Below are positions 3,851 to 7,126 of a DNA stretch of 14,121 nucleotides, piece after piece. The position numbers were made by a program, and so were the translations under genes. The stretch lies in the IMG/VR virus record IMGVR_UViG_3300042731_008053. One strand, given 5' to 3'. The notes beneath the pieces were generated by a model. The model saw only the letters and a list, made by a program, of their open reading frames with translations. It had not been told where the DNA came from and made no database searches. The DNA is from a virus. Numbering within the stretch: position 1 is the stretch's first letter; every line of letters begins with the position of its first letter.

Positions 3851-5554
3851 ATGACAGGTTTGTTGCCCGCTTCCGACGGTTCCCTCGGGGACATGATGGG
3901 GCTCGACGATCGCGGACGGAAAATCGTCAATGGTGTGTTGATCGTAGGCGCGATCAGTCTTGTTGGCGGCCTGGTGTACTGGCTGTACCGGAAAGGTGGC
4001 GGCAGCTTCGGTCGCTCCACGATTGTAGATCCGCCAGTCAACGAAGCGGGTATGACCCTTACGCACTACCGTCACCGCAAGATGCCCATCGACGAGCGGC
4101 TGCGTATCTTGCAAGACCTCACGTGGAAGTCAGTCCAGGATCCACGCAACCGAAAACTCGCGTTGGGTATGACCCACAACTGTCCCGAACGGGACGGTGC
4201 TTGCGAAGCCAAAGCGGTCTACGATCACATCAAGAACAACATCCGGTACACGGGCGACGTCGCACCCGTCAAGATGGGTGCCGACGGTCCGATCGAAGGC
4301 GTTGACTTGTTCCAAAGCGCGTACCGTACATGGGAGTTCAAAGGCGGTGATTGTCTGCCGCTTTCAACGCTGGTCCTGCGCGACGACTACACACTGGTGC
4401 CGCTCATCGCGCTGAACCCAGGCGATCGGATCGCCGACGGTGAGGGATGGACGGTAATTCAGGATCGGTGGTTGACTGGCGAAAAGAAGCTACTGGCGTT
4501 CGATCTGTCAAACGGCTGTACGTTCCGCTGTTCGGCCGATCACCGTATCTTCCGTGTTGTTGGTGAGCGCGTTGAAGAGATTCGCGCGGGCGAAGCACGT
4601 GTAGGCGACGACTTGCTCATGGGTGATGGTGTTCCCACACAGAAAACACCAGAGTACCACTGGCCTTCACCATTCGATCAGCTGAGTGAGGTGGAACAAG
4701 CATGGCTTCTTGGCGTGTACGTCGCTGACGGCTGGCACGAAGTACGTAGCGGTGACCGTAAACCCACACCCTACCGTGTCGGTATCTCCGGCCGCGACGG
4801 CCATCCTAAGGAAGCCCAGAAAAAGCGCGTCAAAGACATCGTCGAGCAGCTCGGGTTGAATACAGAGTGGCACAAACGGTTCATTCGTATCGCCAACACA
4901 GACCTTGCGACGTTCTTGGCAGCGGCAGGTGCTGTCGCGCCTGAAAAGCGGGTCCCTGCTATGGGCGGTTTCACCGAATCAGGTGTCCAATCGTTACTGG
5001 AAGGACTCGCGGCTGACGCTACCTACGGTGGTCGCAATCACGATATTCGCACTTTCGGGACGACATCACCGACATTGGCAATGCAGCTCCGTGTCTTGCA
5101 TCGAATGATCGGTCAGGGTGTTCACATCCGCCGGGTAGACGATCATGGCGGTCTCGGTAACAACCCAATCTATCGCGTAACTGTGCGTGAGAATCCGCAA
5201 CGCCGCGACACGAAGTACGCACGTATCCGTGCGATCCGCGACGGAGGTGTTGAGTTGTGTGCAGACCTGACGACGGAGACAGGTCGTCTTTGGTTGCCTG
5301 AAAACGATCTGGTTGTTCACAATTGCGACGACCATTCAGTGTTGGCGGCGACACTGTTGACGCTCAATGGTATTCCCGCAAAGTTCCGCGTGACTGCCCC
5401 CAGCCGAGGCGGCGACTTCTCCCACATCTATGTCTTGGCGGGACTACCAAAAATGCGGCCCACAAAATGGATCCCGATCGACACGACACTGCCGGGCAAC
5501 GATCGCTTTGGTTATGAAGTCCCGTACGGCCGCAAAGCCGATTACGCTGCATAG
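3851..5554 (+). CDS. Membrane-anchored (SAR-like N-terminal TM) transglutaminase-like cysteine peptidase, interrupted by an intein at the catalytic Cys. Candidate virion-associated or lysis peptidase.
   Basis: 567 aa. N-terminal G/A-rich TM IVNGVLIVGAISLVGGLVYWLY. Joined exteins give ...WEFKGGD|CDDHSVLAATLLTLNGIPAKFRV...GGDFSHIYVLAG...KWIPIDTT, which fits the transglutaminase-like Cys (GIPAR-type), His and Asp motifs. An alternative start at 3893 (MMGL) has a GGGG SD. Confidence 0.8.
   Translation: MTGLLPASDGSLGDMMGLDDRGRKIVNGVLIVGAISLVGGLVYWLYRKGGGSFGRSTIVDPPVNEAGMTLTHYRHRKMPIDERLRILQDLTWKSVQDPRNRKLALGMTHNCPERDGACEAKAVYDHIKNNIRYTGDVAPVKMGADGPIEGVDLFQSAYRTWEFKGGDCLPLSTLVLRDDYTLVPLIALNPGDRIADGEGWTVIQDRWLTGEKKLLAFDLSNGCTFRCSADHRIFRVVGERVEEIRAGEARVGDDLLMGDGVPTQKTPEYHWPSPFDQLSEVEQAWLLGVYVADGWHEVRSGDRKPTPYRVGISGRDGHPKEAQKKRVKDIVEQLGLNTEWHKRFIRIANTDLATFLAAAGAVAPEKRVPAMGGFTESGVQSLLEGLAADATYGGRNHDIRTFGTTSPTLAMQLRVLHRMIGQGVHIRRVDDHGGLGNNPIYRVTVRENPQRRDTKYARIRAIRDGGVELCADLTTETGRLWLPENDLVVHNCDDHSVLAATLLTLNGIPAKFRVTAPSRGGDFSHIYVLAGLPKMRPTKWIPIDTTLPGNDRFGYEVPYGRKADYAA
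4352..5323 (+). mobile_element. Intein (324 aa) with Hint splicing domain and LAGLIDADG homing-endonuclease domain, in frame within CDS 3851..5554.
   Basis: Starts with Cys (GGD|CLPLSTLVL...), the A block. Block B-like SADHRIF. Two LAGLIDADG motifs (AWLLGVYVADGW and LLEGLAADATY). C-terminal VVHN followed by the +1 Cys (LVVHN|CDD). Confidence 0.75.
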
Positions 5555-6274: not shown

Positions 6275-6784
6275 ATGGCCGCAGTAATCGAAGCTCTCAA
6301 TGGTCCAGATGGACTCCAACTGCTCGGACCGAACATTCAGTTGCTCGACGGAGGCAACTGCATGATGGGTTTGGGTTCAAGCCTCACTGACGCAGAGATC
6401 AACGAAATGGGCAAGAGCCTCGCGCCCCAAACACAGACAGGAGGCGGCGTCGATGATGTACGCCTCGCAGCGCTCATGTCCAACTACGATCAGATGACGC
6501 AGGCAAAGCTCGGGGCCGCGATCATCTCGGCTGGAGGTAGCGACAAAGTCGTGTCGGGCGCGCTCAAGATGCTCAAAAACGACAGCTGGAAAGCAGACAA
6601 ACGCTGGGGCGCGTTCTTGGGTATTCTTTCGACCGCGTCTGCCGCCGCGAGTGCTTATCACGGCTACAAACGCAACGACAGCGTCGGCTGGGCCGTCGTG
6701 TGGTTCTTGATGGGCGGCTTGTTCCCGGTCATCACGCCTGCGGTGGCGCTCGCACAAGGTTTCGGCAAGCCGAAAGGAGACTAG
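6275..6784 (+). CDS. Paralog family member 1 (169 aa) carrying the conserved C-terminal HGYKRN / FPVITPAVALAQGF membrane-hairpin module.
   Basis: AAGGA SD. C-terminal WGAFLGILSTASAAASAYHGYKRNDSVGWAVVWFLMGGLFPVITPAVALAQGFGKPKGD. Shares the N-proximal QLLDGGNCMMGL motif with member 2. Confidence 0.7.
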   Translation: MAAVIEALNGPDGLQLLGPNIQLLDGGNCMMGLGSSLTDAEINEMGKSLAPQTQTGGGVDDVRLAALMSNYDQMTQAKLGAAIISAGGSDKVVSGALKMLKNDSWKADKRWGAFLGILSTASAAASAYHGYKRNDSVGWAVVWFLMGGLFPVITPAVALAQGFGKPKGD

Positions 6785-6787
6785 ATC

Positions 6788-7126
6788 ATGGCCCTCGCAC
6801 TTCAAACGGTAGACAACCAGATGCCTCAGCTCCTGTACGGCAACATGATGGGGCTCGATGCCTACGACGCGGCCAGCTACGGTATGGGCGGCTGGTTCGA
6901 GGACGCGACACAAAAGATCGAAGGCACGGTCGTCGGCGGCATCATTTGGTTTTTGCAACTGTTGCGTCCCGTCAGCGCCGTCATTGCCGGCATCCACGGC
7001 TACAACCGCAACTGTGATAGCTGGGGCGCCGCCGCCGGTTGGGCTGCACTGGGCTTTCTGTTTCCGGTCATCACCCCAGTCGTCGCGCTCGCGCAAGGCT
7101 TCACGAAGGAAAAAGCGACATGCTGA
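6788..7126 (+). CDS. Paralog family member 2 (112 aa).
   Basis: AAAGGAGA SD at a 7-nt spacing. C-terminal VIAGIHGYNRNCDSWGAAAGWAALGFLFPVITPVVALAQGFTKEK. DNA-level identity to member 1 over the FPVITP..AQGF region. Confidence 0.7.
   Translation: MALALQTVDNQMPQLLYGNMMGLDAYDAASYGMGGWFEDATQKIEGTVVGGIIWFLQLLRPVSAVIAGIHGYNRNCDSWGAAAGWAALGFLFPVITPVVALAQGFTKEKATC

Follow-up and report, generated by a model that had tools for sequence, protein, structure and literature searches.

The window analysed here is the whole 14,121-nucleotide (nt) stretch of DNA from IMG/VR virus record IMGVR_UViG_3300042731_008053. At positions 4352-5323, the coding sequence appears to be that of a canonical class-1 intein in which a LAGLIDADG endonuclease is nested. 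The element lies in frame just before the nucleophilic cysteine of a predicted membrane-anchored, transglutaminase-like viral protein. Based on alignments and structure models, we put the probability of this reading at roughly 0.92. The reading is carried by what was observed: the anatomy of the element, the folds, alleles that lack the intein, and catalytic residues that are all conserved.

An initial annotation, made without database searches, had described a 324-amino-acid (aa) intein at residues 168-491, with GGD↓CLPLSTLVL at its start and VVHN↓C at its end (arrows mark junctions). Translation reproduces these limits exactly. Cys168 begins the intein (CLPLSTLVL), residues 488-491 are the terminal VVHN and Cys492 comes next. 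The SADHRIF, LLGVYVADGW and LLEGLAADA motifs named in the same annotation are all present within the intein. The precursor open reading frame (ORF) and its parts are listed below.

3851..5554, + strand: precursor ORF, consisting of N-extein, intein and C-extein, 567 aa plus stop (translation of the open frame).
3851..4351, + strand: N-extein, aa 1-167, ending WEFKGGD (alignments of homologs and Transglut_core match).
3923..3979, + strand: predicted single N-terminal transmembrane helix, aa 25-43, IVNGVLIVGAISLVGGLVY (Kyte-Doolittle).
4352..5323, + strand: predicted class-1 intein, 324 aa, from Cys1 to His323-Asn324 (motifs, homolog alignment and model).
4352..4633, + strand: Hint N-terminal lobe with block A (Cys1, CLPLSTLVL) and block B (S61-A-D-H64, nt 4532-4543).
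4532..4552, + strand: SADHRIF motif, intein residues 61-67.
4634..5206, + strand: nested LAGLIDADG homing-endonuclease domain, approximately intein residues 95-285 (model matches and conserved acidic residues).
4706..4735, + strand: LAGLIDADG motif 1, LLGVYVADGW, intein residues 119-128.
4994..5020, + strand: LAGLIDADG motif 2, LLEGLAADA, intein residues 215-223.
5207..5323, + strand: Hint C-terminal lobe with block F (Asp305, in CADLTTE) and block G (VVHN).
5258..5323, + strand: block F/G segment, CADLTTETGRLWLPENDLVVHN, intein residues 303-324.
5324..5551, + strand: C-extein, aa 492-567 (76 residues), with the whole putative catalytic triad inside (invariant columns and homolog model).
5324-5326, 5423-5425 and 5480-5482, + strand: codons of the putative triad, Cys492 (+1), His525 and Asp544, respectively.

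The frame is unbroken over the 972 nt of the intein, with neither frameshifts nor stop codons. GC content at third codon positions (GC3) is 0.58 for the intein and 0.69 for the exteins (3851-4351 and 5324-5551), a mild gap inside the spread of the other window genes. Recent transfer was considered from this contrast; the contrast is unusable as evidence because the intein value is inside the range of the window genes.

Comparison with intein-free homologs is the decisive sequence evidence for in-frame insertion into a conserved host protein. Removal of residues 168-491 in silico gave a spliced protein of 243 aa. With this query, 529 homologs were found at E<=1e-3. The best (P0001) is also 243 aa long and intein-free; it is 86% identical at 100% coverage and collinear from end to end. 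Chance falls well short of explaining such agreement. We aligned the precursor with 11 homologs. Ten of these show one continuous gap between EF(K/G)GGD and CDD(H/N/Q), and the site in the window precursor is exactly GGD↓CDDHS. The eleventh (P0019, 392 aa) has a shorter insertion at the identical point (CLPAGTLLL...VSN↓CDDHS). The predicted protein junction after splicing is TWEFKGGD-CDDHSVLAATLLTLNGIPAK. The comparison also holds in DNA. The spliced coding sequence aligns codon-for-codon with the intein-free allele on contig L001; identity is 76% in total and rises to 90% for the 30 nt that surround the junction. In that allele, nt 2290-2390 contain the junction GGCGGCGAC↓TGCGACGAC.

The Pfam profile Transglut_core (PF01841; threshold 23 bits) distinguishes the precursor from the spliced form. 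The unspliced precursor scores 21.6 bits, below the threshold, and aligns only with the C-terminal profile positions 53-107 (residues 491-544). The spliced extein scores 32.7 bits, above the threshold, over profile positions 7-107 (spliced residues 107-220). Profile positions 7-52 are supplied by the N-extein. The joined exteins had been expected to align to a cysteine peptidase fold, and they do.

The intein search returned 98 clusters, most of them 34-68% identical over the whole intein. We aligned 39 members for residue and profile counts, the latter taken at E<=0.01. Cys1, block-B His64 and block-F Asp305 are each invariant (39/39). The penultimate His323 is found in 33/39, position 324 is Asn in 36/39 and Gln in 3/39, and the +1 Cys is present in 38/38 ungapped rows. 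In sequence and model, the window intein thus has the features of class 1: Cys1, block-B His, block-F Asp, His-Asn, +1 Cys, a Hint fold and in-frame insertion. Profile matches in the family are to Intein_splicing (33/39), LAGLIDADG_3 (18/39, best E 2e-8) and Hint (6/39).

Structure prediction agrees with the pairing of Hint and LAGLIDADG domains in the initial annotation. Briefly, an AlphaFold2 model of the intein, built on the 39-member family alignment, has a predicted local distance difference test (pLDDT) score of 95.4 and a predicted template modelling (pTM) score of 0.92. The top Foldseek match in the PDB is TliVMA (E 2e-17, TMq 0.77). PhoVMA, PI-SceI and PI-PfuI come next (range E 2e-17 to 1e-11), and all are full-length endonuclease inteins. 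These are followed by I-DmoI (E 4e-6, TMt 0.62), and then by hedgehog Hint and mini-inteins. Matches to the Hint fold, whether in full inteins, mini-inteins or hedgehog Hint, have a Foldseek probability of 1.00. Sequence searches were less sensitive. Using phmmer against PDB sequences, matches to the intein were marginal (E 0.4-0.8); six of seven are inteins, aligned at block B, and the weak matches in the Hint N-terminal lobe are all DnaE or PolC inteins. No match to the intein was found by tblastn in 50,697 deposited phage genomes.

Both LAGLIDADG motifs are present in the window endonuclease, and the modelled domain has the alpha-beta-beta-alpha-beta-beta-alpha fold of I-DmoI, PI-SceI and the VMA endonuclease domains. 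The acidic residues of the motifs are conserved (D126 in 38/39, D222 in 39/39) and K199 is invariant. In the model, D126 and D222 end helices H113-126 and H209-222. Since D126 and D222 are kept at the ends of the LAGLIDADG helices, and K199 is kept too, the endonuclease looks intact rather than decayed. From sequence and model, the intein is complete and probably functional.

Splicing would proceed by the class-1 route. Cys1 would make an N-S acyl shift at Asp167-Cys168, and the resulting thioester would be attacked by Cys492 (+1). Asn491 would then cyclise, aided by His490, and an S-N shift would ligate WEFKGGD to CDDHS. The expected products are a 243-aa enzyme of ~27 kDa and a free intein of ~36 kDa. 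After splicing, Cys492 would be used a second time, now as nucleophile in the mature enzyme. The released intein, given an active endonuclease, would cut intein-free alleles around GGCGGYGAY↓TGCGACGAC at co-infection and be copied in by repair (homing).

The predicted host protein is a transglutaminase-like enzyme. Cys168, His201 and Asp220 of the spliced protein, which are Cys492, His525 and Asp544 of the precursor, are invariant in the intein-free family. In the family alignment, the triad spacings are 33 (Cys to His) and 19 (His to Asp) residues. The proposal that the +1 Cys becomes the nucleophile of a Cys-His-Asp core fits this invariant column. Also invariant in the intein-free family is the Cys111/Cys118 pair (CPERDGxCE). 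We used P0001, the 86%-identical intein-free homolog, as a stand-in for the window protein in structure prediction. The model has a pLDDT of 82.9, with values over 90 for the catalytic domain. Its structural matches are cysteine enzymes of the transglutaminase fold, namely Cytophaga 3isr (a putative cysteine protease, E 5e-6), 3kd4, PNGase, LapG and TglA. The phage pseudomurein endoisopeptidases PeiW/PeiP are also matched.

According to alignment and model, the whole predicted triad is in the C-extein and the N-extein is the rest of the fold. The N-extein is the helical N-terminal half of the transglutaminase-like domain and holds the conserved cysteine pair (C111, C118). The +1 splicing Cys is the predicted catalytic nucleophile of the mature enzyme, and the intein lies directly N-terminal to it. 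The unspliced precursor should be inactive, because 324 residues part the N-terminal half of the fold from the triad-bearing half. Enzyme activity had been proposed to be conditional on splicing. As an argument from structure this is sound, and it would be true wherever an intein interrupts a catalytic core; it does not count as evidence for regulation.

The membrane anchor predicted in the initial annotation is also supported. Residues 25-43 are the Kyte-Doolittle 19-residue maximum (mean 2.13) and the only strongly hydrophobic segment near the N-terminus. In the P0001 model, residues 20-52 form a long helix, consistent with an N-terminal anchor. With moderate confidence only, we infer that the mature protein is a membrane-anchored virion enzyme, most likely a virion-associated peptidase or isopeptidase. 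Membrane-containing phages have wall-degrading virion enzymes, such as P7 of PRD1. Because of these enzymes and the resemblance to PeiW/PeiP, our leading guess is a cell-wall peptidase or isopeptidase with a role in entry.

Occupancy of the insertion site was assessed by an exhaustive search with intein-free P0001. This identified 1,529 cluster representatives (50% identity level) at E<=1e-3, and the best 150 were inspected for insertions. Among those 150, 21 carry an insertion of 131-361 aa exactly at GGD↓C...[N/Q]↓CD[D/E]. About two thirds of the 21 count as mini-inteins, with six full-length examples and one of intermediate size. Their C-terminal dipeptides are HN, SN, SQ or RQ. The mini-intein of P0211 (136 aa) keeps both Hint halves and lacks residues ~92-284, a natural deletion that the assigned limits of the endonuclease domain fit. 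The intein of P0208 (187 aa) retains an endonuclease remnant. Such alignments make it plain that some mini-inteins derive from the full-length form by deletion. Viral contig L023 has a second full-length allele at the same site (569 aa, intein 56% identical). Judged by sequence comparison, the site is an intein hot spot showing the expected cycle of invasion, fixation and decay. The host had initially been called unusual. That description stands with respect to the searchable literature and fails for metagenomes, where the site is commonly occupied (the 21 of 150 above).

Terminal Gln is a less common C-terminal cyclisation residue than Asn. Same-site inteins that end in Gln (SQ↓C, AQ↓C or RQ↓C) are those of P0209, P0213, P0214, P0227, P0245, P0263, P0269, P0276, P0279 and P0294.

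Related inteins, 42-57% identical, interrupt other small proteins at G-D↓C-[D/E] (P0136-P0168, P0172-P0202 and others; loci L033 and L034). Two groups of these other hosts, B and C, are 135-181 aa when spliced and share an invariant D-C...H...D, with the motifs GDCD[RNQ]LVAWR and GDCEDLACWR. Their genomic contexts are phage-like and rich in genes without recognised relatives. In hhalign comparisons of groups B and C with the window family, the GDC motif was aligned at only 16% probability. Pfam gave one weak match to these groups (E 0.085), and a PDB profile search with them found nothing relevant. The invariant D-C...H...D hints that groups B and C may be related to the transglutaminase fold.

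Several points weigh against our reading of 4352-5323. The window intein alone scores 22.7 bits with Pfam Intein_splicing, for which the gathering threshold is 35.8, and the window sequence alone has no Pfam LAGLIDADG match. Scans of the precursor, intein and spliced extein against NCBIfam and PHROGs returned nothing informative. The first position of block B (61) is Ser in the window, not the canonical Thr, though both are equally common in the family (Ser 19/39, Thr 20/39). The host-family profile matched no PDB sequence; hence, the fold comparison was needed. The proposed function of the host protein draws on that fold similarity and on one virion protein of 31% identity. That the protein really splices, that the endonuclease is active, and what the host enzyme acts on are matters we infer from the features described above. 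As for the profiles, the check suggested by the initial annotation only narrowly escapes a negative outcome for the window sequence by itself, and is clearly positive at the family and fold levels. The sub-threshold Intein_splicing score is a sensitivity limit of the profile, not an absent feature, because 33 of the 39 aligned homologs match it.

The same low Pfam scores, and the block-B Ser in place of Thr, could be read as marks of a decayed intein or insertion domain. It would not splice, or its endonuclease would be dead, and the 567-aa product would be a non-functional or neo-functional fusion. Endonuclease loss is common at this site, since mini-inteins make up most of its occupants across the wider family. 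We consider decay very unlikely for the window intein, which retains every splicing residue (C1, H64, D305, H323, N324, +1 Cys) together with the invariant K199 and the two acidic residues of the LAGLIDADG motifs. Neither a frameshift nor a stop interrupts its 972 nt, and the model is confidently folded (pLDDT 95). Moreover, the exteins are 86% identical to intein-free homologs and keep the triad, which implies selection on the spliced product. Cleavage without ligation, by a Hint module of the BIL or hedgehog type, is extremely improbable. Such a module might, for example, free the catalytic domain from the membrane anchor. Hedgehog/BIL-type modules do occur among the weaker structural matches, and the anchor could in principle be shed. 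However, the fold and the Pfam domain run across the junction, with Transglut_core positions 7-52 coming from the N-extein, and both halves are contiguous in intein-free homologs. The HN↓C end and the LAGLIDADG domain nested inside are characteristic of inteins, not of BIL modules.

A canonical, splicing intein might in addition have been given a role by its host. Splicing would then be a zymogen-like timing or redox switch, holding a potentially hazardous membrane-anchored virion peptidase inert until assembly or a change of compartment. We regard such a switch as unlikely. If it existed, it would explain why ~14% of family clusters have an intein at this site, mostly endonuclease-free mini-inteins unable to home. 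It would also explain the related inteins at G-D↓C-[D/E] in other small viral proteins with invariant Cys/His/Asp. The many endonuclease-free mini-inteins at the site are compatible with a switch, and are explained just as well if an exact deletion next to a catalytic residue is hard to achieve.

The family of the host protein is viral, as judged by its distribution. A protein identical to the window precursor (P0121) is recorded in two assemblies. In bacterial and archaeal genomes (185,579 GTDB representatives) there are four distant matches only, 29-47% identical over part of the protein. Hence, the family is essentially absent from cellular genomes. It is found on 19 IMG/VR viral contigs of 39-221 kb. 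On these contigs the neighbourhood is syntenic: the transglutaminase-like gene is accompanied by tandem small hydrophobic paralogs, an opposite-strand helix-turn-helix (HTH) gene and a highly conserved 236-aa protein. The whole window had no megablast match among deposited phage genomes. A Pfam/PHROG scan of ~22 neighbouring ORFs gave one match above threshold, HTH_17 (excisionase-like in PHROGs). Sub-threshold matches of these ORFs were to DUF6962, CbtA and Zn_ribbon_Nudix.

In the window, the tandem paralogs are three small proteins (6275-6781, 6788-7123 and ~7120-7656, + strand) with the hydrophobic C-terminal motif HGY[KN]RN...LGF[LM]FP[VL][IS]T..VA[LV][AV]QG[FY]. Copies are found just 3' of the transglutaminase-like gene in most related viral contigs, and their Pfam matches are sub-threshold only (DUF6962, CbtA). 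No gene of the neighbourhood is better conserved than the one for the 236-aa protein (12889-13596, + strand). This protein is 92% identical in L001, 57-76% identical in fifteen IMG/VR loci (L008-L023) and 36-48% identical in three more distant loci. Its GC3, 0.85, is the window maximum. Pfam, PHROGs and PDB sequences gave no match to it, and we regard it as a candidate major structural protein.

On the minus strand, the 222-aa HTH_17 ORF (10617-11282) overlaps the start of a 332-aa ORF (10998-11996, + strand). The long HTH_17 ORF is probably over-extended, because the gene call for its counterpart in L001, a related contig, spans just 54 aa. Also on the minus strand is an ORF at ~102-545; on L003, an identical contig, its counterpart (728-1171) matches DSPc (dual-specificity phosphatase) in precomputed Pfam data. 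A DSPc gene is also near the transglutaminase-like gene in L029. One viral genome of ~80.4 kb was recovered from two independent samples (L031/L032), and may be complete for this lineage. Near its transglutaminase-like gene are ThyX (Thy1), DUF3310 and a multi-HTH/sigma-like protein.

Known intein hosts are mostly replication, repair, terminase and nucleotide-metabolism proteins. A literature search for inteins together with transglutaminase or transglutaminase-like proteins (full-text, with subscription journals outside its coverage) found biotechnology papers only. Text search of two phage intein surveys (PMC5050341; bioRxiv 10.1101/2025.01.02.630785) found no transglutaminase, protease, peptidase or lysin as intein host. 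Another large survey describes intein insertion at catalytic residues as rare (PMC4760082). Two database proteins (P0184, P0204) have precomputed PF01841 and PF14890 matches; such an architecture is already in databases, unremarked. We limit our claim accordingly: a transglutaminase-like intein host is undescribed in the literature searchable within that coverage. The host and the insertion position are new. The splicing mechanism is fully known, that of a textbook class-1 LAGLIDADG intein.

The finding would add a new class of intein host, a cysteine enzyme with a transglutaminase fold and probably part of the virion. It also offers a clean natural case in which one Cys is both the +1 splicing nucleophile and the predicted catalytic nucleophile of the mature enzyme. 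With full-length, decaying and mini-inteins ending in HN, SN, SQ and RQ, the site provides a series for studying the cycle of invasion and decay. Compact mini-inteins (131-190 aa) tolerant of a GGD/CDD junction can also be drawn from it. Finally, the finding flags a little-characterised viral lineage, with genomes of roughly 80 kb, in which nearly all genes are without a Pfam or PHROG match.

Among known systems, the host family has its fold and its Cys...His...Asp in common with transglutaminase-fold peptidases (PF01841, 3isr, PNGase, LapG, PeiW/PeiP). Similarity to these structures is modest, with TMq at 0.3-0.4 and E between about 1e-5 and 1e-3. Two traits are particular to the window host family: its membrane anchor at the N-terminus and the cysteine pair in CPERDGxCE. 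In the 50,697 deposited phage genomes the only homolog, and the one cultured relative of the family, is gp34 of SSIP-1 (Salisaeta icosahedral phage 1), a tailless phage with an internal membrane. It is 31% identical over spliced-extein residues 73-224. The annotation of SSIP-1 gp34 is virion structural protein; it has a Transglut_core domain (29.6 bits) and lacks an intein. The top BFVD structural match, I1ZBG7, is 304 aa, a length equal to that of gp34; the tool gives it no name. The SSIP-1 genome matches no other window gene and is 43.8 kb, compared with 39-221 kb for the contigs of window relatives.

The closest structural counterparts of the intein are the VMA inteins (TliVMA 7qsu/7qss, PhoVMA 7qst, PI-SceI 1vde/1lws) and PI-PfuI (1dq3). 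Like the window intein, they have a split Hint domain and a nested two-motif LAGLIDADG domain. They also share the class-1 set of Cys1, block-B His, block-F Asp, His-Asn and +1 Cys. Sequence identity to the window intein is only 12-17%. PI-SceI and PI-PfuI are larger than the window intein (324 aa), in which no additional region for DNA recognition was identified. The hosts also differ: here a viral transglutaminase-like protein takes the place of an ATPase, polymerase or reductase. A metagenome survey reportedly describes inteins that, like those here, break viral hosts at conserved motifs, in full-length and mini forms and as sporadic alleles. Inteins of myco- and actinobacteriophages are similar, as the two surveys describe them (PMC5050341; bioRxiv 10.1101/2025.01.02.630785). 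They too break viral genes at conserved functional motifs, with an initiating Cys, and full-length and mini forms occur side by side and sporadically among alleles. Unlike in the surveyed phage inteins, the +1 residue in the window is itself the predicted catalytic nucleophile of the host enzyme.

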